From a virus: a DNA stretch of 64,000 bases. The notes under the pieces were generated by a model. It was not told the origin of the DNA and ran no database searches. It saw only the letters and a program-made list of their open reading frames with translations. The position numbers and the translations under genes are program-made. The stretch is from positions 1 through 64,000 of the IMG/VR virus record IMGVR_UViG_3300035698_005082. One strand, written 5' to 3'. Below, in pieces: positions 27,437-45,398 of this stretch. The number at the start of each line of letters is the position of its first letter. The first letter of the stretch is position 1.

Positions 27437-27452
27437 GTATAGGGGCACAAAA

Positions 27453-29435
27453 ATGCGCAAATACCAAAATTTACCAAGCATTAACGTTGAGTTACTTGAT
27501 GGTAACCTGCAAATCGATCAGCCAATCTCAGGACCAGTGGTTCTGGTTGTTGGCACAGCTTTTTCTGGACCATCTAACACTCAATATCTAGTATCTGATA
27601 GTAATCTTGCATCTGCAATTTATGGATCTGAATCTCAGTTGATTCAAAAGATGTCAGAAGCTAAAATGGGCGGTGCAAAAAACATCCTTTTATATAGAGT
27701 CGGTGGCCTAGCTGCTGAGATCTCAGGACTGTTTGGCGACAACACTTTAATATCAACCAGAGAAGAGACTTCTTCTGCAGGCTCTAAGTATGGAATGTAT
27801 GTTGGTCCAAGACCAAATGATGCTGGAAATGCTGGAATGATCATATTCGAAGGAGACACTATTGTTTATTCAAATATGCCAGGCGCTGAAGTAGACCTAG
27901 GAAAATTCAACGTTGTTGGATTTGATACGGCTTTCCCTCATGTAATCGGAACTCCAACTGCTCCAGTCTTGATGAAAGACGTACTAGCAAGTGTTGTTGA
28001 TGAAGCAATACAAAACGAAACAGGCGATGGAATTCTTACAACTTTCGATCTTGCCACAGCCGGAATAACAGCAGTTACATCTGCCACAGAAGATGCGGTA
28101 CCAGTTGCATACACAGTAGTTGGAACAGACATCGTATTCGATGTTGCTCCCGCCAATCTATCTGCGATAATCATAAATGGTACAATACCTCTTGACGTAA
28201 ACACTTTAACGCCAGTTCCAGTATATGTTCCTGGAGAAGACAATGTTAATGCTTCACTACAGAAGTACTACGAACTTCTTGATGCTGCATATGAAGACCT
28301 TGAAACGACTATTGCCACACAAATTGTTACTGGTATTGCTTATCTTGATGCTCCTAACATAGCAGACGGAAGTGTAGCAGTAGACAGACTAGATTACTTT
28401 AGAAAAGAAGAAGTGTCTGGCGAGACTGTGTATACATGGAATACCAACAAGCTAGTATATGTACTTGGTGGATCTAATGAGACCAATGATATACTACTTG
28501 CTGATCTTGACGAGAATGGTCAGCCGATAGTTAAATATGTATATTCTGAAGTGAACTTTGCACATCAAATGGGGATGTGGTTACACGCCATAACCGAGAA
28601 TGATAGATTTGTTCTTGGTTCAATTGGCACAAGTAAGCCATTGTCTAGTACAACTTCTTCAGTATCTAATTGGGTTGGCTCTCTTCCACAGACCGATATT
28701 AATGGTGTAATAATTGCTAACGGTACCGGCTTGCTGGGTAATAGATACATGACAGGAGCAATTGGCCAATTAGCAGGTTTTTATGCAACAGACTCTGGAT
28801 TTCCAGATGGGAATGTTGAATCTGACACTAATGGAGCACCAATAGATTTAGGTAAATACTTGTCAGTGGCAATGGGTGTAGCGGTAACGCCTAATAACCC
28901 TACAATAGGCACTGTTCTAAATCAAACGAATATGGATGCTTTATATATCGGACTCTTATCCGGAATTGTTCCAGGCGATTCAACAACAAACGCGGTTATT
29001 CCATATGTAACATTACCTTTCACAATAAAGAAGACTAAGCTTGATGAACTAACATTTGCTGGTTACGTCTCTTTATCAGATAGAACTCGTGGAACAACTG
29101 TCGTATCTGGAGAGCTAGCTACCGCTGAAGGCTCTGATTATGATTATGTATCTACAGCAATTATAATTGCAAGCGTAGTTAAGAACATAAGAGAAAGATC
29201 GGAACCATTCCTAGGAAAGGGATTAAATCAAATAACCTTAGCAGCAGCAGATACTGCTGTTGAGTCTGTATTCAGAGAAGCAGTGGCTGATGGATCAATT
29301 GTAAAATATGGTTACCAAGTTATTTCAGATACAGCAGAAAGAGGTAGAGGTCAGTTAAGAGTTCCAATAACTATCGTACCAGCATTCGAACTTAGAGAAG
29401 TTTCTGTACCAATCAAGCTTGCTTACGATATCTAA
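27453..29435 (+). CDS. Contractile tail sheath protein
   Basis: N-terminal LPSINVELLD...VLVVGTAFSGP, C-terminal EPFLGK...ITIVPAFELREVSV. ATG 27453 with AGGGG upstream is preferred over TTG 27429. Confidence 0.9.
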   Translation: MRKYQNLPSINVELLDGNLQIDQPISGPVVLVVGTAFSGPSNTQYLVSDSNLASAIYGSESQLIQKMSEAKMGGAKNILLYRVGGLAAEISGLFGDNTLISTREETSSAGSKYGMYVGPRPNDAGNAGMIIFEGDTIVYSNMPGAEVDLGKFNVVGFDTAFPHVIGTPTAPVLMKDVLASVVDEAIQNETGDGILTTFDLATAGITAVTSATEDAVPVAYTVVGTDIVFDVAPANLSAIIINGTIPLDVNTLTPVPVYVPGEDNVNASLQKYYELLDAAYEDLETTIATQIVTGIAYLDAPNIADGSVAVDRLDYFRKEEVSGETVYTWNTNKLVYVLGGSNETNDILLADLDENGQPIVKYVYSEVNFAHQMGMWLHAITENDRFVLGSIGTSKPLSSTTSSVSNWVGSLPQTDINGVIIANGTGLLGNRYMTGAIGQLAGFYATDSGFPDGNVESDTNGAPIDLGKYLSVAMGVAVTPNNPTIGTVLNQTNMDALYIGLLSGIVPGDSTTNAVIPYVTLPFTIKKTKLDELTFAGYVSLSDRTRGTTVVSGELATAEGSDYDYVSTAIIIASVVKNIRERSEPFLGKGLNQITLAAADTAVESVFREAVADGSIVKYGYQVISDTAERGRGQLRVPITIVPAFELREVSVPIKLAYDI

Positions 29436-29494: not shown

Positions 29495-30085
29495 ATGGCA
29501 ACTTTTCAAAGTTTCTCTGGTGTAGACATTCATGCAGTTTTTGGTAATACACAATTTGGAGAAGTCCAAATGGTGTCTTACAAATCAGATCGTGAAAAAG
29601 CACCAGTATTTACAATGGGATCTGCTGATCCAAGAACTATCGCTCGTGGAAAACGACTTATTACAGGGGCTGTAGTCTTTGTGGTATTCGAAAAAGATAG
29701 CCTTTTATCTATTATGAATACAGAAAAAGGAGTAAATAATCCACATCTGTCAAATGAAGAAACAGCCAACTATGACACTACAGGTGGCTTCATTGGTCCA
29801 GATGGTGGAAGCAGAACTCTTAGCGGTGAAGCAGCAGTAGGCTCATTGACAACACCGTCGGCAGCACGTCTTGCTGATCAGTTGCTTCCATTCGATATAA
29901 CATTAGTTGGCGCAAATGAGTATGGTAATACTACAAGTATGACTATACAGGGCGTAGAGCTTATGTCTGAATCTGGTGGAATATCAATAGATGACCTTGT
30001 TATTGAAAAACAAATGTCATTCATTGCTAGATCTATCAAGAATTGGGATAAGGGTACCTTAGTGGTAAGAACACCAGGGGCTTAA
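29495..30085 (+). CDS. Major tail tube protein
   Basis: Follows the sheath; strong SD AGGAG; SFSGVDI...VSYKSDREKAPVFTMG...RGKRLITG...PFDITL..ANEYG. Confidence 0.8.
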   Translation: MATFQSFSGVDIHAVFGNTQFGEVQMVSYKSDREKAPVFTMGSADPRTIARGKRLITGAVVFVVFEKDSLLSIMNTEKGVNNPHLSNEETANYDTTGGFIGPDGGSRTLSGEAAVGSLTTPSAARLADQLLPFDITLVGANEYGNTTSMTIQGVELMSESGGISIDDLVIEKQMSFIARSIKNWDKGTLVVRTPGA

Positions 30086-30091
30086 ATAACA

Positions 30092-30682
30092 ATGCCAACA
30101 CCAAGTAAAGGGAGTCCTGTAAGGGCTATTGGTGGAACGCATACACATATACTTCTAGAACTTTCTGGAGAACAATCAGGTGAGGCGCTTTTCTATTTGG
30201 GAAGCGCCTTAACTGTTTCTTACTCTGTGCATAGAGATAAGGTACCTGTGTTTAACTGCGGTTCACATTTGATAGATGGCTTTTCAATAGCTAATAAGTA
30301 TGTAGCTGGATCAATTATTACTATAATGTATGACATAGATGAATTTGCAGAAATCATATCTGGCATAGTAAAGGGTAATAATGATAATCCATATAAATCA
30401 GCATCCGGAATAAAAGAGTCACACACTTTTATGAGAGACGATCTAGTACCATTTAATATACATGCTATATTTACAAATGAGTATGACGATAAAGCTAGAA
30501 AGATAGTTATATATGATGCTACATTTATAAACAATGGTCAGGTAATGTCTATAAATGATATAATAACAGAAAACACTCTGTCATTTGTTGCAAGAGACAT
30601 GTCAGAACAAAGCGAAATAGGTGATGTGAATTCATCGCTTACAACACGAGAAACCATACTGAAGGCTTCAAGCCTAGTCTAA
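30092..30682 (+). CDS. Tail tube paralogue (tube initiator-like)
   Basis: VSYSVHRDKVPVFNCG...VAGSII...PFNIHAIFTNEY aligns by eye with the tube protein. Confidence 0.7.
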   Translation: MPTPSKGSPVRAIGGTHTHILLELSGEQSGEALFYLGSALTVSYSVHRDKVPVFNCGSHLIDGFSIANKYVAGSIITIMYDIDEFAEIISGIVKGNNDNPYKSASGIKESHTFMRDDLVPFNIHAIFTNEYDDKARKIVIYDATFINNGQVMSINDIITENTLSFVARDMSEQSEIGDVNSSLTTRETILKASSLV

Positions 30683-31258: not shown

Positions 31259-31741
31259 ATGTCTGAAAATGAAATCAATAGTGTACAAGGAATGCCTGTT
31301 AATAGTGGGGATGTAATCATGGATGATAATGATGAATTTCTGGAAGGTATTGAAGAAGAAGAAGTTGTAGCGCAGACTCCGCTAGAAGAACTAGAAGAAT
31401 TAGTATCAGGATTAGAAAATGCACCTAATAAACTTGACTTAGAACAGTGGAAAGATATACATGGACAGTTCTATGCATCTTCCGTAAACGGAGACGATGT
31501 ATTTATATGGAAAACATTAAGAAGGTTAGAATATCGTAGCATAGCAGCTAGTGGAGCATTAGAAAAGCAGGAGTCATTTGAAAATGCAGTTGCAAGAAAA
31601 TGTTTACTTTGGCCTAGTCCATCTCCACAATTTTTTGCTGGAGGAGATGCTGGAACTATACCAACATTATTTAAACAAGTAATGCATCAGTCTGGATTCA
31701 TATCAGATGAAGTAGCCATATCTATGATAAGAAGAGTTTAA
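31259..31741 (+). CDS. Putative tail assembly chaperone
   Basis: Acidic; WK..HG, FIWKTLRRLEY, CLLWP, AGTIPTL..QVM..SGF; lies between tube and tape-measure-like genes. Confidence 0.65.
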   Translation: MSENEINSVQGMPVNSGDVIMDDNDEFLEGIEEEEVVAQTPLEELEELVSGLENAPNKLDLEQWKDIHGQFYASSVNGDDVFIWKTLRRLEYRSIAASGALEKQESFENAVARKCLLWPSPSPQFFAGGDAGTIPTLFKQVMHQSGFISDEVAISMIRRV

Positions 31742-31744
31742 TAG

Positions 31745-32257
31745 ATGAACTTAGTCTCGTTAGGTAGCGAGAAGATGGCAATATCATTCAATGATCTAGA
31801 GATTACTATAAACGATATGTTATATCGTAATCTAACATTTATAGTAAGATTGCTTACCTATGATGAGTTATCTAGGGTTAATATGATTAACACAGATAAT
31901 AGTCTCATAAATATAGTTATAGAAGAAGATATTTACAATCTTGCTGTGGAGCAGGTTGTTGGCATAGACGAAGAGATAGATGTTGAGAGTATGGAGGCTG
32001 GTATAGTATCAACTATATCAGGCATAATACTTAATAGTAGCAACTTCTATTTCAATGACCCATTAGCATCAGTAGATAAAGAATCAACTGGTTCTACAAT
32101 ATTCAACCAGATGCAATTAGTAGTTGCAAAGAATTATAATATCCAGTTCAAAGACATATTATCTATGCCAATAGATGAGCTTGTCCGCAAGTTTTCTTTA
32201 TATCAGACAACATATCCCAATGAAGCGTTGAGCTTCAGCAATAATCAAGATGCATGA
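31745..32257 (+). CDS. Second putative tail assembly chaperone (distant paralogue of the previous gene)
   Basis: FIVRLLTYDE and AGIVSTISGIILNSS echo the motifs of 31259..31741. Confidence 0.5.
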   Translation: MNLVSLGSEKMAISFNDLEITINDMLYRNLTFIVRLLTYDELSRVNMINTDNSLINIVIEEDIYNLAVEQVVGIDEEIDVESMEAGIVSTISGIILNSSNFYFNDPLASVDKESTGSTIFNQMQLVVAKNYNIQFKDILSMPIDELVRKFSLYQTTYPNEALSFSNNQDA

Positions 32258-34226
32258 TACAGAATATTCCACACCTATCATACAAATCGCCTCAGCCAGT
32301 ACAATCTCTAAGCAAAGAGAGGAAGAAAGGCGTAAGGACGCTTTAGACAAGTTTCTTATTACGGGTGGCACAGTAATGGGTGCTGCATATGCATCTAAAA
32401 AACTACTTAATAATCCAACAATTAGTAAGTTCTTCAAGCTATCAGTTCTTGAAGCTTCACTAAATGAGACAGCCCAGGGAACATCCTGGAATGACTTATT
32501 TTCAGATAAATCAAATACAAGAAAGCCATCACATTTAATACTGGAAGCAGTAAGAAAAGTTGAGGAGCTTTCTCCTTTCAGAATCTTTAGAACTCTACAG
32601 CTATCCCATGTCATGACCCCATTTGTAACGGGCAAAGATGTAGCAGTAGACATAACTGGAGACATGATAGTATCACAAGAAAAATACTTTAAAAGCCTAC
32701 TGTCTTCAAGAGGGGAAGTAGAGCTGTCTGATAAACACAAGGTTTATGGCCTAAGATTAGAAAATGGTAAACTGTATGAGAAAACAGCAGATGGAAAAAC
32801 TGGAAGCCTAGTAGCAAAAGAAGCTAGATTAATACTACCTCACTTTGCATTACCAAAAGATGATAATTCTAAAGAGCTAGTCTATGCAAATAAAGTGCTT
32901 AGACATTATCAAGAGATAGTGGGTGGAGGAGTAAAGGATCAATTTCATAATCTGGTTGGATCAGACATATCTCCTTTTACAGTCATTGCAGGCAAGTCTC
33001 AATCTCAAATATCATATGATATGTTCAGATCATATTCAAGAGTAGTGATGGAGCGTGGAGCCAAGGTGTGGGATAACCCACTAGAATCTATAGTAGACTT
33101 CCTACCACATGCTGAAAATGCCAAGTGGCATAAAAACTTAAAGAAATTTTCTCAGATAAATATAGGAACTGGTGGTCAATATAGGCAATCAGTTCCCAAG
33201 TCATTACTAATGATGGCGAAAAATCAGAAGAAGGTTCTTGCAGCAGTGGCTGGATACAATATCTTAGATGCAGTAGTTTCTTCATCTGCTACGGAAGATG
33301 GTTCATTTAGTGGTGGCCTATTAGAAGGTACTGCTACGGCTGCAGTAAATACACAAATAGCGTTTGCAGAAGTGTGGTCTGATAAGTTTCAAGATTATAG
33401 GGATGCGCAAGAATATTTAGCACCCGGATCTACATCTTTAATGACGATGGCAGGACTACCATTAGCATTAGGCACAGCAGCAGGTACAGCTTCTTATGCG
33501 ACAAGGCTGTACCAAAGTGCAAAGAGTGGAATAGATGCATCGGAAGTATCAGCAGAAAAGCTAATAAAAGTATTCCCAGAGAAGATGGATAAATATCTTC
33601 CAAAAGTCATATCATCTCTTAAAGCATCAAGATCAAAGAGATGGGGAATAAGAGCTGGCCTGATTGGCCTAGCTCTTGAGGCACCGTTCATACCAGGAGC
33701 ACTAATAGGTGAGGGTTCAGAAAGCTTAAAGGATAAGTATTCTGGAAAAGAAGATGTTGCAGTAAGAGCAAATAGATGGTGGTTTACAGGTTCTGGAGAT
33801 TATGGTGGAGATCATATAAAGTACTTTGATAAACATTGGTATGCAAAACTGATGGCCAAAACAAAGACGAAATCCCTATATGGAGATGACGAAACAAAGG
33901 CTGGTCTTAATCCAATACTACACCCATTAGACTTTTTAAAAGATCCATACAAATTTGAGAAGATGCATTCAGAAGATAGACCATACCCAGTTTGGGGAAT
34001 GGACATATCTACTGGATCATTTCTAGGAAAGGCATTTGAAAAAACAGTTGGTGCATTGTTAAAGCCAGATGTAATAAATCCTAGATTAGCAGAAGAACTT
34101 AGAGATGTAGAACCAGGAACCGTAGTCCGTAATGATCACACAATAACTAATAAAGGTATTAGTAGAGCATTGGCAACAGATACATTCTCTGTTGCTTACC
34201 AATATCGGAAGGTGATGTTTCATTAA
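32250..34226 (+). CDS. Tape-measure-like/ejected protein, N-terminal part (reading frame broken near 34195)
   Basis: Position after the chaperones; several Gly/Ala hydrophobic segments; continues in the -1 frame. Confidence 0.65.
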   Translation: MHDTEYSTPIIQIASASTISKQREEERRKDALDKFLITGGTVMGAAYASKKLLNNPTISKFFKLSVLEASLNETAQGTSWNDLFSDKSNTRKPSHLILEAVRKVEELSPFRIFRTLQLSHVMTPFVTGKDVAVDITGDMIVSQEKYFKSLLSSRGEVELSDKHKVYGLRLENGKLYEKTADGKTGSLVAKEARLILPHFALPKDDNSKELVYANKVLRHYQEIVGGGVKDQFHNLVGSDISPFTVIAGKSQSQISYDMFRSYSRVVMERGAKVWDNPLESIVDFLPHAENAKWHKNLKKFSQINIGTGGQYRQSVPKSLLMMAKNQKKVLAAVAGYNILDAVVSSSATEDGSFSGGLLEGTATAAVNTQIAFAEVWSDKFQDYRDAQEYLAPGSTSLMTMAGLPLALGTAAGTASYATRLYQSAKSGIDASEVSAEKLIKVFPEKMDKYLPKVISSLKASRSKRWGIRAGLIGLALEAPFIPGALIGEGSESLKDKYSGKEDVAVRANRWWFTGSGDYGGDHIKYFDKHWYAKLMAKTKTKSLYGDDETKAGLNPILHPLDFLKDPYKFEKMHSEDRPYPVWGMDISTGSFLGKAFEKTVGALLKPDVINPRLAEELRDVEPGTVVRNDHTITNKGISRALATDTFSVAYQYRKVMFH

Positions 34227-36028
34227 TAGAAGAAGGAAAGCTCATAGCCCCAGCAGCAGCTACATATGATCCAGCAAGTGAAGCATTATCATGGTCGTGG
34301 GAAGCTTTTAAAGACTTCATAGGTATAAAGGGTTGGTTGTTAGGTGTAAGTGAAGAAGCGTTAAGTGTACCATCCTCTCAGGTGCCACCACAGCTAGCTA
34401 GGTCGGGCGAAATGACCAACATTGGTAGACGCATTAAGGATTCTAATGTAGGCGGCTTATTTGGCCTTACAGAGCCTCAGAGAAGATTCATACCAACATC
34501 AGCAGATGTAACAAGAGATAGGATAAATCCATTAAGAAATGATATGCCATCATGGCTTCCTGGCGATGATGATAACTTCTGGCTAAATTTGCAGAAAGGA
34601 GATCCTTTCACTAAAATAGAGCATTCAGAATCTAGGCTACCAGGTGCTGGATATGAATCATTACATAAAGAGATTACAGGTATTAATCCAGAAGACTATC
34701 CAGATATATTTAAACTAAAAATATTATCTGACGTAGCAATGGGTTCTGATGCATATTATGATGTTAGGAATAGAGTAGAAAAAAGAGAATCAGAAAATGG
34801 ATTAACTAAATACGAGTCAGGTATGCTGTCTACTATAAGAGAGCAGGAATCCAAAAGGTCTGTAAAAAGACAATTCTCTGAATATAAAACAGACAGAGAA
34901 CTTACTGGAACTAGTTTTGTACAAAAAGTTGCTAACTCTTATTGGGAATCAGTATCACATGGCGCAGAAAGAGTTTTGCCATCAGAATTCCTAACATTCT
35001 TTAGACCCGCAGGCAAGCTAATTCATCAAAGAACCGCAATAGAAGACTATGAAAGAACCCAGCTGGAAGGATCAGACATGGCTATTTGGACAAAGCCATT
35101 CGATCACTTTATTAAACCGGCAGCAGTATCCGCAAGAAGAATGGTTGACGGAGACTTTATATCAGAAGAGGTAGACAACAGAAGAGATATAGATAGATAC
35201 TTCGATACTCTTGAATATGTTAAGCAAAGAAGATTGTATAAAGAAGCTGTAAGGTCAGGCAGTTCTGGAGATGCCAGAACAGCTCAGGCAGCATATCAGA
35301 AAACTGTAGAAGGCGCATTAACTTCTAGTATAGACACTGATACTGAAATCCTAAGATCATATATATCTCTACCAGATCAAGAGAAGCCATATTTCTCATC
35401 ATTTGTAAATGCCAAGTCCGGAGATAGACAAAAGATATTAGACATATCTCCAGACAGAATCTCTGATCTATACAAAGTCATATGGTCAAGAAAAGATATT
35501 CTAGATAAAGCAATAGAGTCTGGAGCAACTGCTGAGAATGCAAATTATGAAGTTAAAAAAAGGGTGGCTGAAGAAGAGTCATTATTACAATCTGAATATA
35601 GTGACGAATATAAAGCTTGGCTAGATATGAAAGACAAAAGAGCTAGTACGTTTAGAGAACATTTGGCTGATACAAATGCTGAAGCATATTTAACTAATAC
35701 TGCTGGCATACCTGGGAAAGATTTTTCTGGATGGGATCCAAGAATAGATATGGACAGGATAAAGCTGCGAGCATTAACAATAGGGAATGAAGATTTCTTT
35801 AAGTTTGGGTTTTGGAAAAGTGATATAAGCGAACTAGAAAGATATACTTCTGTAAATAGCGACAAGGAAGTAGAGGACATAGCAGAAAGAATAAGGGATG
35901 AGCAAAGAGCGAAAATACATATACAATCCCAGATGGAAGACGCACTATTTAGCGAAGGCTATGAAATTAAAAGAATCTCTATAGAAGAAGGACGTGGAGA
36001 TATTGACATGAGTATAGAGAGAACGTGA
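34166..36028 (+). CDS. Tape-measure-like/ejected protein, C-terminal part (-1 frame continuation)
   Basis: Frame is open from 34166, well before the listed TTG 34337, and reads LPISEGDVSLIEEGKLIAPAAATYDPASEALSWSWEAFKDFIG. Fused product would be about 1259 aa. Confidence 0.65.
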   Translation, partial: SIGNRYILCCLPISEGDVSLIEEGKLIAPAAATYDPASEALSWSWEAFKDFIGIKGWLLGVSEEALSVPSSQVPPQLARSGEMTNIGRRIKDSNVGGLFGLTEPQRRFIPTSADVTRDRINPLRNDMPSWLPGDDDNFWLNLQKGDPFTKIEHSESRLPGAGYESLHKEITGINPEDYPDIFKLKILSDVAMGSDAYYDVRNRVEKRESENGLTKYESGMLSTIREQESKRSVKRQFSEYKTDRELTGTSFVQKVANSYWESVSHGAERVLPSEFLTFFRPAGKLIHQRTAIEDYERTQLEGSDMAIWTKPFDHFIKPAAVSARRMVDGDFISEEVDNRRDIDRYFDTLEYVKQRRLYKEAVRSGSSGDARTAQAAYQKTVEGALTSSIDTDTEILRSYISLPDQEKPYFSSFVNAKSGDRQKILDISPDRISDLYKVIWSRKDILDKAIESGATAENANYEVKKRVAEEESLLQSEYSDEYKAWLDMKDKRASTFREHLADTNAEAYLTNTAGIPGKDFSGWDPRIDMDRIKLRALTIGNEDFFKFGFWKSDISELERYTSVNSDKEVEDIAERIRDEQRAKIHIQSQMEDALFSEGYEIKRISIEEGRGDIDMSIERT

Positions 36029-39000
36029 TGGCATATGACCCATATAAAGAACTTAATAAAATAAATAAATTCTTGGGACCAAAAGCTCCGATATTGGCCG
36101 GTGTTGCTTTTGGTGCTTGGTCGCAAGATGGACAAGATAATCCGTATGCTTCCGTAGCAGCGGCAGCGATAGGTGCATATACTGCACATGCAATAGCTCC
36201 AGATATTCAGAATCTATACAAGGCACTAACTCCAGAAAGGGTAAGTCTTGATGCCTTGAGGTCTAGAGAAATAGATATGAGTAATGCTCGTAGTACAGCA
36301 TTGGGAAATGCTTTAGACTCTATGAATAGGGCATTTGAAACTAATATAGTTAACGAGCCAATGCCATTAGATATATTAAGACACAATATGTCTGTAATGT
36401 TTAATGCTGCATTCTCGTCTATGACTGACGATGAATTAATACCTGGAGTACAGGCATTAATGTCTTCTGTATCTACAGATAGAAAGAAGGCTCTAGAGAT
36501 AAGGGATGTTCTCATTAATAGATCCAAAATAAATTCTATTAGTGGTGCAACGATACCCGATACGGAAAGAAAGACAATACCAATAAAGCCTAGTGATAGC
36601 ATCGAGAATATAAACGAAAAGCTATTTAAGCACTTTAGCCAAGAATTAAACAATCCAGAATCTATTGCTAAATCAAAAGCAGACAGTATGTCTAAGGCAC
36701 TACTAGGTAAGAATGCAAAAATAGAAGGGCACTCTCTGACTATAAAGACACCAGATGGTGCAAGGTCTAGCGAGAGGATATCATTGACTGGCTATAAAGC
36801 AGATGGTACCAAGTTCAGTAGAAGAAACGGAGTAGATTTCATATCGAGATCATTTAATCCACTAGGGGAAATGTTCGCAGATGGTAAACAAATAACAGAC
36901 TACGAGACAGGATCATCTAATAATACTAGAATAAGTGTTGGGATGGCAACAGCCAAACATGACCCAGAAGAGTTAATAGGCCTTTTCCATAAATATAATA
37001 ATGGAATATCTGATGCCGAGTGGGCAAAGATATCTAATAAGACAGATTCATTAAATATATATTCAGCAACAGACTCAAGAGTTCCAGAAGGAATGTCATT
37101 TTATGAAATGGATAGTTCTGGATATGGCAGACGCATATCTGGAACAATAGACATGAATGTAACATTTTCTCAATCAGAAGATACTGGCAAGGTGACTATT
37201 GGTTCAATGGATACCTCAATAGAGATAGGCGAAGAGAGTTCTAAATACAGTAAGTTTCTGGATAGGGTATCTAAGCAACTAGGCTATGACCCGCAAGTTG
37301 GGCAGAGCCCCAACTCTTTAGGCTTAATAACAGCATATTCAGATAAGGATAATCTATATAATCCTGGTCTGTATCACGCAGAAGCACGAGGAGCAACATC
37401 TGTGAGCTATAGAGACCATTTACCGTTTTCAGTATCATCTTCTGAATACCTTAAGCAAATAGCCGGAAAAGATTCAAGAGTAAATGCATTGAGAACATCG
37501 GCATCACATGGATACAGAATACATATGTCTGAAACTATGGGAGAAGCTGTGTCACAATTATTTGGCAATAAGCTAACAATAGCTGATGGGCATGGTATAG
37601 CGAACCCAGGAGAAAGAAAAAGCTTTAGTGGTAGACAGCTAACATCGGTAAGTATTGGTAACACTGGCGATTCAATAAATCCAAAATATCTCTTATCTAT
37701 GGGCCTACCAGAAGAAGTTCTAAATATGACACCAGTACAGCTAAAGACTTATTTGCAAAATAATTCAATAACTGTACAAGCAGGACAGGTGCTAGGATAT
37801 GACGAAAGCAGAAGAGCTTCTAGATTGAAATCCCATTTTACTTCCGGTAGATTAATAAACATAGTAAAAAATGATAAAGGAATAAAACTTGTTTTTTCTG
37901 GTAAATATAGACCAGAAGATTGGATCAAGATATTTGGAGCATCGTCTAAGTCTGGTTTGACTTTTGCTGACACTCGTATGCAGTTTCAGGAAATGGGAGC
38001 ACTAGCCCTAGCAGAATCAAGGGGAGATATAACTATAAGAAAAGATGGACCAGGGAATATCAGAGTTCTTGCCTCAACAAGAGTATTGGGTGTTAAATCT
38101 AAAAAAGATAAGGTAGAGAATTTGGATCTAAACACATTCATGCAGCGATGGAAGAATAGTCCAACACGTAATAGATATATCAAGGAAGCAGCCGGGGCAC
38201 ATATGATACAAGGCTGGGATGAGGTTGGACAAAAGAATATATCTACATTATTAAACGGAAGTGCTGAAGAAGGGCTAGAAATAGTAAGAGGATTAGGACA
38301 ATCACTTAAGGGAAAAGGTCTAGATGATGAGATCCTAGAGATGGCATTGCTGGGGGATTCTAGAGGAGACAGAATAGAAAAAGCTAATATAATGAGAACC
38401 ATACTTATGACATCTAGTGAGAAGTCTTCTCAAGATATGTTTCTGACTGCAGCAGAGTACTCTGCAAGATCTGGTAATACAGAAGATGTAAACTTCTTAA
38501 GCGGTCTAGAGAATAGAAATGGACTAGTGTCAACAGATGAAAGGGATAGACTGAGGGGGATAATAACTCAGGCGTATAAGGGGACAGAGGGTAAATCATA
38601 TACACAGTTTACACCGGATATGGGAGAAGCCATACATGGTGCTGGAAAGTCTGGATCTATGTCTAGACTTGAGTATTCAATGCTTAAAGCAATAGGTCAT
38701 AATATGAGTATCTTTGATGCTGTCACACAGCAGAATTCAGAAGCATTATATGAGTTGTCGATGATACACAAGTCCGATAGAAGCGGAAACTTCTCTGCTA
38801 AATCATTTTCTGAAGGCACCGATATATCAGAGGTAATGAGACAGGCATTTAGAACTAAAGCAGAAGATAGGCTTGGGTATCTATCTAGGGCAGGCATGAG
38901 TGAAAACATAGCTGATGAAGCCGCTAGGTACACACTGGCTAATCCCATAAAAGGGATAGCATCTATACCACTGGCCCTAGTAGAAACTGGGCATAGTGGG

Positions 39001-40671
39001 CTTAAGGAGTACGGTGGAAAAGAAATACTAATGAGCATAGAGAAGGCAAGAGAAGCAGTGATTAATGCAGACATTGACGTATCAAATGCTAGAAGTAGTA
39101 AGTATAAAGATGGAGCAATGGTTAGACTATCAGCAGCAGCTGATGAGTTAATAGGATACCAGAAACAAGCCATGTCTGGAGATAACAATATAAAGAAGAC
39201 TGCAGCAAAAAGAGCTGCCGATGGTTCTTTACTATTAACAGCACGCCCAGTAGGTGGTAGTGCCGACGCGGCAGTTGGTAGTGTAAAGAATATAGCTTAT
39301 ATATCAGAAGGAATGGCTAAGAGATTATATTCAAATCATGGTTTTAAATATGAAAATCTATCTGAAGATATGGGTAATGGCATTAGTAGACTAAGGACTG
39401 AGAATGGCAATAACTTCATGGCACAGATATCAAGAGAGCCTGTACAGGGCCCATACTCTTCGATGGGATATGAGATCAGAGTAGACAGTAGTCTTAGAGA
39501 TAATAGTCAACACATATATATACCGCAAAGCGGAAAGCTAATAAATGCCTTTACATTTTTAGACTATGACGCTGACCATCTTAGAATGTTACCACTATTA
39601 GGCCTATCTGCTGCTGAAGAAAAAGCTTATATTAGCACCAATGAAGCGCTAGTAGGACACGCTCAAGATGCTATAGAAATACAGAAGAGCCTTGGTATAA
39701 AAGGTGTATCTAAGCATATCGATGTATTATCTCAGTTCGGATCAGTAGGAGAGAAGATTAGGCAAATGATGAAAGCTGGAGAGACGGCTAGGATTAGAAA
39801 GATAGATTCTCCAGAGGTAACAAGGATAGTTGAAGAGTTTGGGGCCGCATTAGACATGAAAGATATTGAAGGAGCAAGAGGACTTATGCCAAGAGTCCTT
39901 GCTCACAATCTTACAGAAAATCTTATAAAATCTTCCCATAAAGAGGTTGGTGGAAATATGTCTGGAGCAGTGCAGGCGATAGAAGCGGCACAATCCAGGT
40001 TCGCTTCAGATAAGAATAAAGATATATATAGAGCATCCATGATAAGGATAGTAGACGACACCATTGGCGGAGAAGTTGAGAACCTATCTCCAGAACTACA
40101 GGCTAGATATACACAGGGATTGGATGATTTAATTGATGCACACATACAGCATGGTCCAGATGTTAAAACATTTATGGGTGATAAGAATTCTAAGAGAATA
40201 GTGGATCAAATTGGAATATCGGAAATGATAGAAGACACAGTATTGCAAGATGGCAATGGTCCAGTACCAAGTTCAAGAGGTGAAATAACACCGAGAAGCG
40301 CAGGTACGGCATCAAAAAAGATGCTAAATGATTCTATTCGGGATACAATGGGGATGCTATCCAAGAACAAAAGATTGCTTACAGCATCAGCAGTCGGACT
40401 TGGCGCTCTAAGTATACTGACCAGGGATACGCCAGATCAACTAGCATCAAGCTCTCCAGGATCTTCAAATGGGGCACAGCCACTACAGCCACTTTCTAAC
40501 GAAACAGCTTATACTAGAAAGTATAATCCAAAAAAACAATACTCAGCATCAGCAGATGTAAGATCTCCAAGTTCAAATATAAATACAGCCTCTATAGATA
40601 GAGCATTATTTGGTGACAGGATAGGACAAGTATCTGTGAATATAAACGATAAGAATAGAGACTATTTATGA
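36025..40671 (+). CDS. Candidate single-chain two-barrel (beta+beta'-like) virion RNA polymerase
   Basis: Ordered motifs: IADG, VQAGQVLG, SGRLINI..IKLVF..KIFGASSK (beta-like); AAKRAADGS, AYISEGMAKRL, SREP, IYIP, LDYDADHL (beta'-like). Hydrophobic N- and C-terminal segments. Confidence 0.75.
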   Translation: MMAYDPYKELNKINKFLGPKAPILAGVAFGAWSQDGQDNPYASVAAAAIGAYTAHAIAPDIQNLYKALTPERVSLDALRSREIDMSNARSTALGNALDSMNRAFETNIVNEPMPLDILRHNMSVMFNAAFSSMTDDELIPGVQALMSSVSTDRKKALEIRDVLINRSKINSISGATIPDTERKTIPIKPSDSIENINEKLFKHFSQELNNPESIAKSKADSMSKALLGKNAKIEGHSLTIKTPDGARSSERISLTGYKADGTKFSRRNGVDFISRSFNPLGEMFADGKQITDYETGSSNNTRISVGMATAKHDPEELIGLFHKYNNGISDAEWAKISNKTDSLNIYSATDSRVPEGMSFYEMDSSGYGRRISGTIDMNVTFSQSEDTGKVTIGSMDTSIEIGEESSKYSKFLDRVSKQLGYDPQVGQSPNSLGLITAYSDKDNLYNPGLYHAEARGATSVSYRDHLPFSVSSSEYLKQIAGKDSRVNALRTSASHGYRIHMSETMGEAVSQLFGNKLTIADGHGIANPGERKSFSGRQLTSVSIGNTGDSINPKYLLSMGLPEEVLNMTPVQLKTYLQNNSITVQAGQVLGYDESRRASRLKSHFTSGRLINIVKNDKGIKLVFSGKYRPEDWIKIFGASSKSGLTFADTRMQFQEMGALALAESRGDITIRKDGPGNIRVLASTRVLGVKSKKDKVENLDLNTFMQRWKNSPTRNRYIKEAAGAHMIQGWDEVGQKNISTLLNGSAEEGLEIVRGLGQSLKGKGLDDEILEMALLGDSRGDRIEKANIMRTILMTSSEKSSQDMFLTAAEYSARSGNTEDVNFLSGLENRNGLVSTDERDRLRGIITQAYKGTEGKSYTQFTPDMGEAIHGAGKSGSMSRLEYSMLKAIGHNMSIFDAVTQQNSEALYELSMIHKSDRSGNFSAKSFSEGTDISEVMRQAFRTKAEDRLGYLSRAGMSENIADEAARYTLANPIKGIASIPLALVETGHSGLKEYGGKEILMSIEKAREAVINADIDVSNARSSKYKDGAMVRLSAAADELIGYQKQAMSGDNNIKKTAAKRAADGSLLLTARPVGGSADAAVGSVKNIAYISEGMAKRLYSNHGFKYENLSEDMGNGISRLRTENGNNFMAQISREPVQGPYSSMGYEIRVDSSLRDNSQHIYIPQSGKLINAFTFLDYDADHLRMLPLLGLSAAEEKAYISTNEALVGHAQDAIEIQKSLGIKGVSKHIDVLSQFGSVGEKIRQMMKAGETARIRKIDSPEVTRIVEEFGAALDMKDIEGARGLMPRVLAHNLTENLIKSSHKEVGGNMSGAVQAIEAAQSRFASDKNKDIYRASMIRIVDDTIGGEVENLSPELQARYTQGLDDLIDAHIQHGPDVKTFMGDKNSKRIVDQIGISEMIEDTVLQDGNGPVPSSRGEITPRSAGTASKKMLNDSIRDTMGMLSKNKRLLTASAVGLGALSILTRDTPDQLASSSPGSSNGAQPLQPLSNETAYTRKYNPKKQYSASADVRSPSSNINTASIDRALFGDRIGQVSVNINDKNRDYL

Positions 40672-43600
40672 TACTAAAGAATAACGGATCAGAAAAAATA
40701 AGAATAAACAATGTCAATCTGGAAATCAATCCAGTTGACATACTTTCTATACAGAAAAGAAGACTGATCTCAGAAGAATTCATAAGAGAAAACTCTAACT
40801 ATACATACATGGGTAATTATGGAGAGGCAAACTTTAAGATAATATTGCAATTTGATATAAACGAAGTATTATCTGAGCCAAGCTCAGCAGAGAGTCCATC
40901 TGACTTCATCCAGCTACTTGCACAGATTAATAACTATCCATTCTTATTTATAACCTCTAATAGAATAGAATCTTATTTAACGACACACGTAAAGACTGGT
41001 ACTAGTGGGGAGATAATGTTTGGCATAATGTCATTCGAGCTAAGAACAGATTCTTCTGCACAAAACATAGTTACGTTAACATTGCACCTTTCATACTTTA
41101 ACCATGCACCATATGCAAAAGAGATATCGTTCTATGATGCTATAGAGGACAAGTCTCAGCCAGAAAGAACAAAAGTATTAAAAGGGAAAAAGAATATAGA
41201 GTATATAGCAGAAGATACGTCTAGCCTTGTTGGCAATCAGCTGTTTAATAGATATTTCACTTCAGACTATTCCGCAATAATGGGTAGGCTAGATAAGTAT
41301 ATTAGTGGCGCATCGTCAATAGCAGATGTAAAGTTGAGATATCCAGTATTCTTAAACGACGAACCTGAGTCTGGCGACTATGAAGAGATGGTATATTCTG
41401 AGATAACTGCAGAAAAACTCATTGTAAAAGCCAAGGCGTATACATTATGGCCAGACCTTGGTATTGCTAATAACATTAACACCAATGAATCCCCAGTTAC
41501 CTCAATAGCCCTAGTGAGAAGAAATAATTTTGCATCACACAGCATGACAGCATGGTCATATCCAACTTTGCAATACATGGGTAGAGGAGGAACGACAGTC
41601 GTAACAACAATATCTCAAGAATCTAATACTGGAACAAGTATAGATTATGTAAAGCTGTGCTTAGGAAAGCTTGATTCAAATCATAGAAAGTTTGCAAAAT
41701 ATTCTCAATATAATGTATTAAAGCTTGATCATATAATCTTTGATTTAGTACCGGTTTTCGGGATTGTATTAGATAGAGAAGAGATAGGTACAAGTTCTAG
41801 TTTTCAGGATGTAGACAATGGTGTATTTATATTTTCAGAAAAAAATCTTAAGGAATTAATACAAAGGAAAAAACCTAGGGCATCTGGATTCAGGGCGGAT
41901 AATCATGATATAGATAGAGTAATTGATATACTAACAAATCTTAGTAATGGAATACCAAAGACTAAAGAATTCGATTGTAGTTATAGTTACAGCAAAGAGG
42001 ATGAAACTACCAGGTATAGACAGATGCAAATACCTAGCCCTTTAACATCTGCACTGCTAAAGGAGCTAGAAAGACAGTATGATCTACCTGCACACACTTT
42101 ATATAATGTAATGTGGCAAGAGAGTAGAGGTGATCCTAATGCGGTATCTCCATCTGGGGCTGAGGGTGCATTCCAATTTATACCAAGCACAGCTTCAAGA
42201 TTTAACCTAGAAGACAGAACAGATCCTGTAGCATCAGCAGCAGCAGCGGCTGAGTATTTATCTTGGCTAAAGAATAAGTTTAACGGCAATATGAACCTAG
42301 CACTTGCTGGATACAACTGTGGTGAAGGATGTGTAGGGAAAGCTATAACAGAATCTATAAATAGTGGTGGGTCTGGCAGCTGGGAAGACATAATACGCTT
42401 AGTACCTAATGAAACGCAAAACTATGTTGAGCCAATAATGAATGGGATAGTAGCAGATGGTGCTAACCCTTCTCTGTCTAGACAAAATTGCCATTCCCTA
42501 TTGCATATAGATAAAGCAGAAGTAATCTTGGAAAAACTATCAGATGATCTTAATGGAACAGAATCTATACTGAGATTTTTCCCTGGAGGTTTAAATTCTT
42601 ATAATTATGGATCTTTAGGCAAAAGAACTTCTGGTGCAGTAACCGATGAAATGAGAACGATATCTAGCTCTTTAGAATTTTATAAAACACTCAGAGACAA
42701 TCAAGAGGGCAACGAAGTAAAGCTTGCTAAGGCTACAAGAGATATACAAGATGCATTCATAGACATTCTCTCCGAAGGCACTAGATCAAATAGGCTTGTT
42801 AAAGCATACATAACAGACTACCTAAGCTTTCTTGATGAAAATTATGATCAGATAATAAACTCATTCGATGATGAGGCATATTCTGACCTATCGCTTGGTT
42901 CTAGGATATTTAATTCTGGCCCAGCGATAGGTGAAGATGGTAAAGGTGCTAGGGATGCTAGAGATATAAATCCGTTCTTCTTCATGAAGGCAGGTGCATA
43001 TTATACTCCAGGAATACTAGAAAGATCTTATAGGTTGTCAGCTAAGAATTTAAGAAAGAACGCTCATGATATATCAGATGAGATAAATAGAGTAATAGAG
43101 CTTGATACTAAAATAGGAACAATTGGTAAAGCGAAAGGTGAGTTTAGCAATGATGATTCACAGCCTGAAAGATTAATTAACACAAAAATAAGTAAAGCAA
43201 TAAATGACTTAGCTGATCAGATAGATAAAAAGACTTTGTCTAGCGCAAGGGGAGACTTCCCATTAGACATGGCTACACAAGGACCCGAAGCTGAAGAATT
43301 GCAGGCATCAATACATTTTGAAAGATCAGCAGAAAGCCTTAAACGTGGCATTAATCAAGCATTCCCAGTATTAAAAGTCTATTTAGTAGAGGGGGATGAA
43401 GACTCAATTACATCAAATCTTAGAAATCTAAAGCATGAATATTATGAGCTTCCAGGTGTGATATCATCAAGGATAGTTCATCAAGATGATGATTCACCAG
43501 TTGATCTAATGTATCTAAAGATAGCTAACCCAGGATCAATGTACAGCGATAGTACAGTTACTATGGATCAGTTTTATCCAAAGAAAGACTGGAAAGCAAT

Positions 43601-45398
43601 AAATACAAATCATGAAAATTCTATACCGCTAGATAAGGTCTTCTTAAGACCTGGTAATAGACTACATGTTAAAGCAGGATATTCTAATGATATCAATAAC
43701 TTAGAAACAGTATTTAATGGGATTGTTACAGATGTTTCTGGCGAAATGACACTTGAAGTAATATCAGAAAGTTTTGGCAGAGAGCTTATAGCAGTAGAGC
43801 ATGGAGACGATCCAGAAGTTAGCAACTTTACATTTGGTGCTGATACATTCGAAGTTGTAGCCAACTTTGTATACTCTGGAGAATTGGAGCATTTCGGTAA
43901 TATAAAATTCTTTAGCAATCTAACAGACATAGAAGGTAGAGATAGGCAGCAGCTTACAGTAAATGATATACTTAAATACCATGGTTCTGCAGAATTATTT
44001 GTCAACATATATACTGATAGCATAATACAGGAAGGATTCGAATATGGATTCAATGTAAATCTAAATAGCTTATTTGGAAGTAGCCAAATAATGCCACACT
44101 TTCCGATATACAAGACGACACCATGGGCTGCTCTAAAAGAAATGGAGTTTAGACATCCAGGATCATTAGTAAGATCTCATAACTATGGAGATAGGCAGAC
44201 TGTATTCTACGGAATAAAAGAACAATTATATGTATACAGGAATACACATTATGCCATACAGTCTAGAGCTAGTAAGAATCTATACAATAGGTTTAGAAAG
44301 AACAGACTGAAACCAGCATCTGATTTCCATATATTAACATCTGATAATAACATTATTTCCAATGGTCTTAGGGTTACTAGTGATTTCAAAACTGCAGTAA
44401 GTGTAAGATATTATAACGATGTCGATGATATAAAAAGTCAGGATTTTGAATGGTTTGATGTTAAAATAGATGATAACTTAAAACCGATGTCCCATAGATT
44501 GGGAAGGTGTGAGATGTCTGGAACACATGGTAGATACTCGGCATTATCATATGCATCTACATATCTAAAGAAGGAAGTAGAGAAAATGTATGATGGCACA
44601 ATATTAGTTATTGGAAATCCATCTATAAAGTCTGGTGACTATGCATTAATAGATGACTCCGTAAGAGGCATGAACGGAATAGTGAAGATAAGGGGATGTA
44701 TACAACATTTCGATGTACATAATGGATTTGTTACTGAGATAATACCTGGCCTATATGCAGAATCCTCTCACATAGATTATTCGATGTTATTTACAAAATT
44801 ATATCTTGGGTATATGCCAGCCATAACAATTGCAAGATCAATAGCATCAGAAGATAATAACTCTGTTATAAATAGAGATATCACACTAGACATTCTTGGA
44901 CTATCAAATGATCCATTGGGATCTGTATTTGGGTCAGGAGATTTTAGTGGAGGATTAGCTTCTGTATCATCCCTACTAGCCGGTACTGGTTATGCTGGAA
45001 CTAAGGCCATAAGTGGCCTGCGTTCTTCTAAAACCATTGCAGATAGTAAAGTCTTTAATTCAGCCAAGTCTACATATGATGCACTAATAGCAAGAGGTAG
45101 ATTAGCAACATCATCCATATCTCCTGAAGTTTTTGCATCTATAAGAGTCGCGAGATGGGCAGTGGGTGGAAGCATAGTAGGGGTTTTACTATATGCATTC
45201 GTGTCTGAATACATAGATGAAATAAAGAAGACAAGGCAACCCATAAGAATGTTCCCGGTTTCACTTAATAGTAAACAATATATAGGTGGGATATGGGGAT
45301 ATAATGAGGGATCATACTGGGATGACTTTGGCAGTAATATATCTGAGAGCTTTAATAATGCAGGCATATTATTTAATCACATTTGGGATTCATTCTGA
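40668..45398 (+). CDS. Baseplate hub-like protein with internal lytic transglycosylase (SLT) domain
   Basis: WQESRGDPNAVSPSGAEGAFQFIPSTA...ALAGYNCGEG...ETQNYV (catalytic Glu at 42120). Hub-like LRPGNRLHVKAGYS...VFNGIVT and YDGTILVIGNPSIKSGD. Hydrophobic segment near the C-terminus. Confidence 0.85.
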   Translation: MILKNNGSEKIRINNVNLEINPVDILSIQKRRLISEEFIRENSNYTYMGNYGEANFKIILQFDINEVLSEPSSAESPSDFIQLLAQINNYPFLFITSNRIESYLTTHVKTGTSGEIMFGIMSFELRTDSSAQNIVTLTLHLSYFNHAPYAKEISFYDAIEDKSQPERTKVLKGKKNIEYIAEDTSSLVGNQLFNRYFTSDYSAIMGRLDKYISGASSIADVKLRYPVFLNDEPESGDYEEMVYSEITAEKLIVKAKAYTLWPDLGIANNINTNESPVTSIALVRRNNFASHSMTAWSYPTLQYMGRGGTTVVTTISQESNTGTSIDYVKLCLGKLDSNHRKFAKYSQYNVLKLDHIIFDLVPVFGIVLDREEIGTSSSFQDVDNGVFIFSEKNLKELIQRKKPRASGFRADNHDIDRVIDILTNLSNGIPKTKEFDCSYSYSKEDETTRYRQMQIPSPLTSALLKELERQYDLPAHTLYNVMWQESRGDPNAVSPSGAEGAFQFIPSTASRFNLEDRTDPVASAAAAAEYLSWLKNKFNGNMNLALAGYNCGEGCVGKAITESINSGGSGSWEDIIRLVPNETQNYVEPIMNGIVADGANPSLSRQNCHSLLHIDKAEVILEKLSDDLNGTESILRFFPGGLNSYNYGSLGKRTSGAVTDEMRTISSSLEFYKTLRDNQEGNEVKLAKATRDIQDAFIDILSEGTRSNRLVKAYITDYLSFLDENYDQIINSFDDEAYSDLSLGSRIFNSGPAIGEDGKGARDARDINPFFFMKAGAYYTPGILERSYRLSAKNLRKNAHDISDEINRVIELDTKIGTIGKAKGEFSNDDSQPERLINTKISKAINDLADQIDKKTLSSARGDFPLDMATQGPEAEELQASIHFERSAESLKRGINQAFPVLKVYLVEGDEDSITSNLRNLKHEYYELPGVISSRIVHQDDDSPVDLMYLKIANPGSMYSDSTVTMDQFYPKKDWKAINTNHENSIPLDKVFLRPGNRLHVKAGYSNDINNLETVFNGIVTDVSGEMTLEVISESFGRELIAVEHGDDPEVSNFTFGADTFEVVANFVYSGELEHFGNIKFFSNLTDIEGRDRQQLTVNDILKYHGSAELFVNIYTDSIIQEGFEYGFNVNLNSLFGSSQIMPHFPIYKTTPWAALKEMEFRHPGSLVRSHNYGDRQTVFYGIKEQLYVYRNTHYAIQSRASKNLYNRFRKNRLKPASDFHILTSDNNIISNGLRVTSDFKTAVSVRYYNDVDDIKSQDFEWFDVKIDDNLKPMSHRLGRCEMSGTHGRYSALSYASTYLKKEVEKMYDGTILVIGNPSIKSGDYALIDDSVRGMNGIVKIRGCIQHFDVHNGFVTEIIPGLYAESSHIDYSMLFTKLYLGYMPAITIARSIASEDNNSVINRDITLDILGLSNDPLGSVFGSGDFSGGLASVSSLLAGTGYAGTKAISGLRSSKTIADSKVFNSAKSTYDALIARGRLATSSISPEVFASIRVARWAVGGSIVGVLLYAFVSEYIDEIKKTRQPIRMFPVSLNSKQYIGGIWGYNEGSYWDDFGSNISESFNNAGILFNHIWDSF

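Follow-up and report, generated by a model that had tools for sequence, protein, structure and literature searches.

The locus and its large open reading frame

The window analysed here, a stretch of 64,000 nucleotides (positions 1-64,000 of IMG/VR record IMGVR_UViG_3300035698_005082), covers the opening 64 kb of a viral contig that is 73 kb long and has an estimated completeness of 40%. All of its large open reading frames (ORFs) lie on the + strand, and they include a contractile-tail module (Table 1). Within this module is P0001, an ORF of 1548 codons. An initial annotation of the window proposed that P0001 encodes a very divergent single-chain RNA polymerase (RNAP), membrane-tailed and delivered with the virion, in the position of a tape measure. 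Judged from its predicted structure, the view is supported that P0001 is a single-polypeptide RNAP built on two double-psi beta-barrels (DPBBs) and a member of a previously unrecognised sequence family. Four lines of evidence support the core of the proposal, a divergent single-chain RNAP in the tape-measure slot: the fold search, residue conservation, gene order and the database label of a homologue in a cultured phage.

P0001 is translationally coupled on both sides, by a TGATG overlap upstream and an ATGA overlap with the downstream start. The listed start codon is GTG; the true start is probably the ATG at 36028, one codon further on, because of the TGATG overlap with the upstream stop and because the Atlas record of the protein begins there. 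All nine motif strings named in the initial annotation are present at the residues it gave. One of them contains DYDAD (residues 1180-1184), the sole DxDxD in the protein. By itself DxDxD is weak evidence: a protein of this composition is expected to carry 0.39 such motifs by chance, 30% of 5000 shuffles contain one, and 3 of 15 other large ORFs in the window do so as well. Only 1.2% of the shuffles combine the motif with an RxP 35-55 residues upstream. The signal above chance comes from conservation across the family and from an independently predicted fold.

Predicted fold of the core

Residues 441-1330 were modelled with AlphaFold2 from a 34-row alignment and without templates (model residue 1 is residue 441), giving a predicted local distance difference test score (pLDDT) of 88.3 and a predicted template-modelling score (pTM) of 0.85. 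A Foldseek search of PDB with this model returned 101 matches at E<=1e-3 (best E 2.4e-5, probability 1.00). The best 50 of the 101 are all RNAP largest subunits, including bacterial beta', yeast Pol I A190 and the non-virion RNAPs of phages AR9 and phiKZ. In other words, structure prediction followed by Foldseek, one of the checks named in the initial annotation, retrieves a two-barrel RNAP core. Template-modelling scores (TM-scores) are about 0.17 and root-mean-square deviations (rmsd) are large, which indicates that the match consists of shared core elements within much larger chains and does not extend to the whole chain.

When the core model was compared with 48,161 representative chains using VIA-align, ranks 1-20 were all two-barrel RNAPs. 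The matches include QDE-1 (7y7p_A; Z 11.5, 377 residues aligned, rmsd 6.1, model 5-888), maize RDR2 (ZmRDR2, 7w84_A; Z 10.9), P74 gp62, the non-virion RNAP type of the P23-45 group (Z 10.8, 296 aligned, rmsd 3.9), and Pol IV, Pol I, vaccinia, Pol II and M. tuberculosis beta' (Z 10.2-10.7, beta' at 10.2). P23-45 gp96 (Z 9.3, 277 aligned, model 7-883) and phi14:2 gp66 (Z 8.5, 342 aligned, model 8-883) were also retrieved. The single-chain enzymes QDE-1, gp62, gp96 and gp66 align across model 1-888. The second subunit (B) of Pol I covers model 3-434 (Z 9.2) and bacterial beta covers model 1-474 (Z 7.2), and the beta'/Rpb1-type subunits fall on model ~475-890, so the order of a beta-like block followed by a beta'-like block, first read from short motifs, is recovered structurally. 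The connector region between the two aligns with the clamp of 3qqc_A (Z 5.9).

Isolated DPBB domains (the N-domains of Cdc48/NSF/Pex1 and designed DPBBs) align to model 627-751 at rmsd 2.1-2.5 (for example 7dww_A, Z 7.4, rmsd 2.5, 85 aligned), placing the beta'-like barrel at residues ~1067-1191. In the core model the aspartate triad lies in the loop ahead of strand 745-750, RxP ends strand 692-697, and K635 and K642 are on or beside strands 193-197 and 203-207. A helix of 28 residues (model 756-783) begins 6 residues past the barrel, and the alignments with beta', QDE-1 and gp66 reach model 879-890. The alignment to single-chain enzymes, together with the pTM of 0.85, suggests that the triad and the lysines form one common active site. 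We regard it as highly probable that P0001 has the two-barrel RNAP fold with an intact active-site signature.

Given that the top two structural matches are QDE-1 and a plant RDR2, P0001 might be a two-barrel polymerase of other activity: an RNA-dependent RNA polymerase (RdRP) like these two, a primase-like enzyme or a PolD-like DNA polymerase. QDE-1 itself has both DNA- and RNA-dependent activity, according to the available text of one report (PMC9508822). However, no more than about 1 separates the Z-scores of the RdRPs, the phage DNA-dependent RNAP (10.8) and the cellular RNAPs (10-10.7), which amounts to a tie. No PolD chain occurs in the best 50 VIA-align rows, which does not exclude PolD. 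A double-stranded DNA phage also has no known use for an RdRP, an argument made for gp99 of Bacillus phage 0305phi8-36 in the accessible portion of Hardies 2007 (PMC2147016). We consider a different activity very improbable, and retain the reading of P0001 as a phage RNAP.

A search of BFVD returned, as best matches, two halves of ME3_36, a homologue introduced below (E 1.6e-22 and 2.1e-11), followed by other proteins, many of them giant-virus RNAP subunits. Two further BFVD entries share the core fold: a 'minor tail protein' of uncultured Siphoviridae sp. ctnpt50 (E 2.4e-11; TM-score relative to the query, TMq, 0.46) and an uncharacterised protein of Microcystis phage MaMV-DC (E 2.7e-6). These may be further tail-linked two-barrel RNAPs. 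The ESM Atlas gave no usable match for P0001 or for the one intact version of the protein encoded just upstream (gp145-like; locus L005, see below).

A well-populated family with invariant charged residues

With residues 801-1400 as the query, phmmer was run exhaustively over 1.84 billion cluster representatives and detected 62 proteins at E<=1e-3, 55 of them at E<=1e-10; most are 1450-2400 amino acids (aa) long. A word-based search gave 8 full-length relatives at 28-59% identity. The metagenomic homologues correspond to 62 clusters at 50% identity. Conservation was assessed in an alignment of 65 proteins from 50%-identity clusters (P0001 and 64 homologues), from which one 704-aa and one 127-aa fragment were left out; the relatives in it are otherwise 20-40% identical.

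Among 50,697 phage records searched with tblastn, the sole relative is gene 36 of the Acinetobacter jumbo myovirus vB_AbaM_ME3 (ME3_36, AND75197.1). Its product is ~24% identical to P0001, matches the family profile over its whole length (E 9e-277) and keeps REP, then DHDQD 43 residues later. It is annotated as a hypothetical protein, the fate that the initial annotation had foreseen for such a gene. No prophage copies were found in one genome per species for 185,579 prokaryote species, a search that used two close peptide patterns from near relatives and could miss distant copies. Likewise, we found no paper that names the P0001 family or ME3_36 an RNAP, although the supplements of Chaban 2024 (23 RNAP families and a survey of viral genomes) and of Iyer 2021 could list the family.

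The residues expected of a two-barrel active site are kept almost without exception. R1137, P1139, D1182, D1184, K1058, K1259, E1298 and K1302 are each present in 65/65 proteins, and D1180 in 64/65; the one exception reflects a gap in the alignment, as the protein concerned reads GDFDGD. K635 and K642 are found in 63/65 each, with the Lys-Lys spacing of 7 in all 65. The acidic DG motif is kept to a similar degree (G522 in 63/65, D521 in 62/65), as are S880 (65/65) and R949 (64/65), and K1226, R1258 and H1305 are near-invariant. The distance from R1137 to D1182 is 43-56 residues, most commonly 45. The initial annotation had asked whether the three aspartates, the RxP arginine and both lysines persist in homologues, and they do so in 63-65 of 65. 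Invariant charged residues amid 20-40% identity are the pattern of an enzyme and not of a ruler protein. Position 4 of the DxDxD motif is variable: Ala in 20 proteins, Gln in 19, Tyr in 8 and Gly in only 4 of the 65.

Cysteine is nearly absent from the family (1437-2424 aa; median 0, maximum 1). In P0001 alone, the average cysteine content of the other 44 ORFs of the window (0.39%) gives P ~0.0025 for zero in 1548 residues.

Gene order and the tail module

The placement of P0001 in a contractile-tail module holds: sheath, tube and chaperone-like genes lie upstream, and a hub-type gene with an SLT domain lies downstream. Ten loci were compared (ME3, one IMG/VR contig and eight metagenome contigs), with gene order read as far as the flanks reach. 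In 10/10 loci the order is sheath, tube, tube, 189-aa gene, chaperone pair, gp145-like gene, P0001 gene, hub, 248-aa gene, baseplate W-like gene and baseplate J-like gene.

Annotation of the ME3 tail module rests on homology to Bacillus phage 0305phi8-36. In that phage, gp145 is the counterpart of ME3_35 and gp147 that of ME3_37, so ME3_36 and P0001 occupy the gp146 slot. The claim of a tape-measure position is therefore sound in the sense of gene order. In the GenBank record of 0305phi8-36, gp146 is a hypothetical tape measure that was identified in virions by mass spectrometry; its tape-measure role was assigned mainly from tail length, according to the available text of Hardies 2007 (PMC2147016).

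The gp145-like gene just upstream of P0001 is split in the window into ORFs of 658 and 563 aa by a frame change between ~34124 and 34193; together the halves amount to ~1250 aa. The intact 1256-aa ORF of locus L005 and ME3_35 are collinear across the frame break in tblastn. In loci L021 and L023 no frame change separates the two halves, and in L005 they form a single open ORF. An assembly error, a real mutation and programmed frameshifting could each account for the break. We consider the gp145-like gene a candidate for the ruler of the ME3-like lineage. Its halves, too, are free of cysteine, and the C-terminal half (34337-36028) matches the Pfam nucleotidyltransferase domain L544_NTransf only below threshold (E 0.0011, 19.3 bits where the cut-off is 27).

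Domain layout and termini

The RNAP core is flanked by ~440 N-terminal and ~220 C-terminal residues, and no long tape-measure region is fused to it (Table 1). The model of residues 1-470 has a pLDDT of 80.9, with lower confidence for the terminal long-helix pair. Foldseek found no match for it at E<=1e-3, and the best VIA-align score (Z 5.9) is within noise. Weak rows of the same quality (Z 4.5-5.6) pair the N-terminal hairpin with membrane helical hairpins (Z about 5) and RNAP beta, in its N-terminal part, with residues 210-451 (6j9e_C, Z 4.7, 178 aligned; 6rfl_B, Z 4.5). The models of residues 1-470 and 441-1330 both show compact alpha/beta domains and no extended helical ruler. Homologues of greater length (up to 2424 aa) have inserted stretches in the connector or ahead of the core, after the N-terminal hairpin, and again no ruler. 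The span between D1182 and the C-terminus was tabulated only for the 15 homologues above 1750 aa, in which it is 370-414 residues. The possibility that the longer homologues are fusions with the gp145-like or hub protein was discarded, as blastp gave no match at E<=1e-2.

The description of the protein as membrane-tailed stands in part. All 65 proteins have a Gly/Ala-rich hydrophobic stretch in the first 80 and in the last 160 residues (median Kyte-Doolittle (KD) value of a 19-residue window 1.18 and 1.31, respectively), and the N-terminal hairpin is at the extreme N-terminus in all homologues. In P0001, however, no 19-residue window reaches KD 1.3. The near-absence of cysteine and the hydrophobic terminal stretches are compatible with a protein that is expelled from the particle.

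A protein in this slot could also be a structural, tail-lumen or tape-measure-type component that has inherited an RNAP-derived fold and no longer polymerises, as an exapted scaffold or a channel-forming ejection protein. The position itself, the C-terminal helix and tail that faintly resemble the C-terminus of gp146, the rarity of glycine at motif position 4 and the lack of sequence similarity to active RNAPs are in keeping with this idea. Yet an inactive protein would not be expected to keep the three aspartates, RxP, both lysines, K1058, K1259, E1298 and K1302 in 63-65 of 65 relatives. Moreover, both models are globular alpha/beta folds, and the gp145-like gene is available as a ruler. We therefore judge a non-catalytic P0001 improbable and favour an active enzyme.

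Table 1. Features of P0001 and of its surroundings in the window. Residue numbers refer to P0001 unless stated otherwise.
Feature	Position	Strand	Details
P0001	36025..40671	+	1548 codons, open throughout; listed start GTG
N-terminal Gly/Ala-rich hydrophobic helical hairpin	36061..36207	+	residues ~13-61; G26, G30 near-invariant
N-terminal helical bundle and alpha/beta domain	36277..37374	+	residues 85-165 and 180-450; globular, not a coiled-coil ruler
Beta-like barrel region (candidate DPBB-B)	37504..37974	+	residues ~494-650; contains D521, K635, K642
IADG	37585-37590 (D521/G522)		residues 519-522; D521 at 37585
ITVQAGQVLG			residues 582-591
K635	37927-37929
K642	37948-37950
Connector	37975..39210	+	~410 residues, mostly helical; C-terminal part on beta' N-terminal clamp region; beta' alignments start at model 475
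Conserved block GEAIHGAG..GSMS	38623-38673	+	within connector
MSGDNNIKK...			residues 1050-1068
Beta'-like double-psi beta-barrel (DPBB-A)	39211..39597	+	residues ~1063-1191; contains RxP and DYDAD
AYISEGMAKRL			residues 1091-1101
SREP	39433-39441 (R1137-P1139)		residues 1136-1139; RxP motif
HIYIP			residues 1163-1167
LDYDADHL	39562-39576 (D1180/D1182/D1184)		residues 1179-1186
Long helix and following helices	39610..40014	+	helix 1196-1223; invariant K1259, E1298, K1302
C-terminal Gly/Ala-rich hydrophobic helix	40375..40431	+	residues 1451-1469; 15-residue window KD 2.0
Conserved C-terminal tail	40432..40668	+	residues 1470-1548; P1478, F1529, G1530, N1539, D1542
Portal	9329-11152	+	PHROGs
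Major head protein	13861-15075	+	PHROGs
Tail sheath	27429-29435	+	PHROGs
Two tube-like genes	29495-30682	+	PHROGs
189-aa gene	between tube-like genes and chaperone pair	+
Chaperone-like pair	31259-32257	+
gp145/ME3_35-like gene	32250..36028	+	virion structural protein type; split into 658-aa and 563-aa ORFs
Hub-type protein	40668..45398	+	1576 aa; SLT domain at its residues 465-563, E 3.9e-25 (Pfam); counterpart of ME3_37 and gp147
Baseplate wedge genes	46445-48029	+	PHROGs

Several observations were made on other genes. The hub-type protein has strongly hydrophobic segments at its residues 349-369 and 1488-1517. Just upstream of the portal gene, a 597-aa ORF (7530-9323) shows weak matches over residues 130-347 to the PHROG 'tail length tape measure protein' (E 3.9e-6 and 3.7e-5) and contains 10 cysteines, unusual for the window. 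A 1736-aa protein encoded between the head genes and the sheath (19930-25140) has Big_9/cadherin-like Ig domains and a weak LamG-type match. Past the end of the window, at 66446-66553 on the minus strand, a 269-aa frame has a weak Sigma70 region-2-like match below cut-off (E 0.0019, 14.5 bits).

Discussion

The combination of predicted fold, conserved residues and gene order leads us to propose how P0001 may act. In the predicted structure, the beta-like half contributes K635, K642 and the acidic DG motif (D521), and the beta'-like half RxP (R1137, P1139) together with the metal-binding triad D1180/D1182/D1184. Between the halves is a clamp-like connector, and a bridge-helix-like segment comes after them; on the basis of the model, we infer that the long helix and the region following it correspond to the bridge helix and trigger loop. 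By analogy with other phages, P0001 would be produced alongside the tail proteins and incorporated into the virion at the place where 0305phi8-36 carries its tape measure. It would then be expelled via the tail tube on sheath contraction, after the hub transglycosylase has opened the cell wall. The Gly/Ala-rich terminal helices could hold it at the inner membrane, where it would transcribe the first-entering (pre-early) genes independently of the host RNAP, as gp96 of P23-45 does. Virion delivery is plausible, based on the analogy with gp96 and on the slot of a proven virion protein; we infer membrane anchoring by the same analogy.

A number of results weigh against this account. At the level of sequence, a Pfam scan of P0001 gave 0 families at E<=0.1 and a PHROGs scan 0 matches. 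Searches of PDB sequences using phmmer with P0001 and hmmsearch with the family profile returned chance-level rows only (E 0.16 and 0.47). PF05183 (RdRP) and PF00623 (Rpb1 domain 2) match nowhere in the genome of the window phage. The profile comparison with RpoB and RpoC named in the initial annotation failed to show a relationship: hhalign of the family profile against single E. coli sequences gave E 0.67 for RpoC and E 0.35 for RpoB, neither of them significant. Against residues 1-1200 of P23-45 gp96 it gave E 0.063 over just 22 columns around DFDGD, again not significant. In all of these hhalign tests the other side was a single sequence, and family profiles there would make a better test. 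The low TM-scores of the Foldseek matches and the rarity of glycine at motif position 4 are further points of this kind. In phi14:2 gp66, a non-glycine residue at this position (DFDID) goes with a loop whose conformation in the crystal is inactive, which its authors, in the available part of their report, attribute to a pre-packaging state (10.1101/2020.03.07.982082). Regarding delivery, a folded core of ~100 kDa could pass the tail tube only in unfolded or elongated form, and the hydrophobicity of the termini of P0001 is modest. The literature yielded no proteome or transcriptome for the window phage or ME3. Finally, gp146 is not a detectable homologue, and consequently its mass-spectrometry evidence does not transfer directly to P0001.

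The lack of a Pfam RNAP match places P0001 outside those sequence families and makes it a member of the structural superfamily only. The characterization as a very divergent single-chain RNAP is apt in exactly this sense: there is no sequence-level link to RNAPs, yet the fold is predicted and the predicted catalytic residues are conserved.

Alternatively, P0001 could be an active two-barrel RNAP that is encoded in the late tail operon and acts in the cell, as a late, non-virion enzyme. The literature contains no virion proteomics for the lineage, and the hydrophobic termini are weak. In addition, the complete ME3 genome has no match to PF05183 or PF00623, so one enzyme might serve all phage-specific transcription. 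A search of ME3 with PF00940 was uninformative, as the control gave no match. As a second RNAP in ME3 we considered a 798-aa protein (KU935715, 224453-226849, minus strand) with a Foldseek match to the core model over 695 columns (E 8.9e-4), and rejected it for want of a DxDxD. Counter to an enzyme confined to the cell, the gene is flanked by the gp145-like virion gene and the hub gene, its start and stop codons overlapping those of its neighbours, in an arrangement invariant in 10/10 loci, and in 0305phi8-36 this slot belongs to a proven virion protein. It is not obvious what the scarcity of cysteine and the conserved hydrophobic segments at the termini would do for a cytoplasmic enzyme. Furthermore, an enzyme whose synthesis is confined to the late phase would have to be carried in before it could start transcription. 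On balance we think a non-virion role unlikely, though it is the most credible of the alternatives. The full explanation, an RNAP that travels in the virion, is in our estimation likely, with less confidence than we attach to the fold.

A still more specific picture can be drawn tentatively, and we would sooner doubt it than rely on it. In ME3-like jumbo phages, a complete, clamp-bearing and cysteine-free RNAP might occupy the gp146-type tail-lumen slot, be threaded through the tube and become anchored in the membrane by glycine-zipper-like helices at both ends, transcribing and perhaps pulling in the DNA. This would be the first tail-delivered RNAP of a myovirus, and the second independent union of transcription and tail channel after P23-45.

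ME3 has so far been regarded as lacking a recognised RNAP. Activity of ME3_36 and P0001 would mean that ME3 and its relatives have an RNAP of their own. If the proposed delivery is also true, a second case of a tail-tape polymerase, in a sheath-bearing phage and unrelated in sequence, would point to the coupling of entry to transcription via the tail channel as a recurrent solution. The few single-chain two-barrel RNAPs used to reconstruct how RNAPs evolved would gain a well-populated family in which the catalytic loop is mostly non-glycine. As ME3 can be grown on a laboratory strain, the prediction is directly testable.

Comparison with known systems

The two-barrel virion RNAPs known from phages are phi14:2 gp66, P23-45 gp96 and the multisubunit enzymes of phiKZ-like phages. 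To our knowledge, a tape-measure-linked RNAP has been described from a single, thermophilic siphovirus only. That enzyme, P23-45 gp96 (PDB 8H2M/8H2N), is fused to a tape measure and transcribes pre-early genes independently of the host RNAP, as found by experiment (Chaban 2024, PMC10770324, in its available text). Like P0001, gp96 is a single-chain two-barrel RNAP in the tape-measure position of a tail module, has hydrophobic membrane segments in the same polypeptide, and is opaque to sequence methods beyond the DxDxD region. The role proposed for both is transcription of the first genes during DNA entry. The differences are considerable. By the same account, gp96 has 5002 aa with the RNAP at the N-terminus (residues 1-1200 in the crystal), followed by a very long tape measure and a metallopeptidase, whereas in P0001 the enzyme fills most of the 1548 aa and there is no long ruler. 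The available text also describes gp96 as clamp-less and flat with a short disordered connector (PMC10770324); the P0001 model, in contrast, has a ~410-residue connector on the beta' clamp region. The phage of gp96 is a siphovirus and that of P0001 has a sheath, the motif is DFDGD in the former and DYDAD in the latter, and there is no significant sequence relationship.

The virion-packaged phi14:2 gp66 (PDB 6VR4) shares with P0001 the single-chain two-barrel architecture, a non-glycine residue at motif position 4 (DFDID) and large size with extra domains of unknown fold. It differs in its length (2180 aa), in belonging to the podovirus-like crAss lineage and in lacking detectable similarity to P0001 at the sequence level; its gene adjoins other virion-protein genes and is not part of a sheath/tube/hub module. 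A switch of the catalytic loop like that of gp66 is, for P0001, speculation by analogy.

The QDE-1/RDR2/YonO-type enzymes (PF05183) give the best structural scores and have the barrels in the same order in one chain, but PF05183 matches neither P0001 nor its genome. The representative of this type in 0305phi8-36, gp99, is encoded on the non-structural arm and not in the tail module, according to the accessible portion of Hardies 2007 (PMC2147016).

With gp146 of the same phage, P0001 shares the slot between a gp145-type gene and a gp147-type muralytic hub, as well as a hydrophobic helix with a short conserved tail after it at the C-terminus. However, gp146 has 2537 aa, no DxDxD and no RxP motif. 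We rejected gp146 as a member of the family by its core, given that the family profile has no match in the whole 0305phi8-36 genome. An hhalign comparison of gp146 with the family profile covered the last 95 columns only, namely the hydrophobic helix and tail, and was not significant (E 0.096). The C-terminal likeness is at most a hint, from sequence, that a tail-docking end was kept.

ME3_36 is a true family member with the same synteny and the sole one in a cultured phage among the records searched. Looking across these systems, a tail-associated virion RNAP is already known from the gp96 precedent. New in P0001 and its relatives are the sequence family, the contractile-tailed jumbo lineage, the clamp-like connector and the organisation without a fused ruler.

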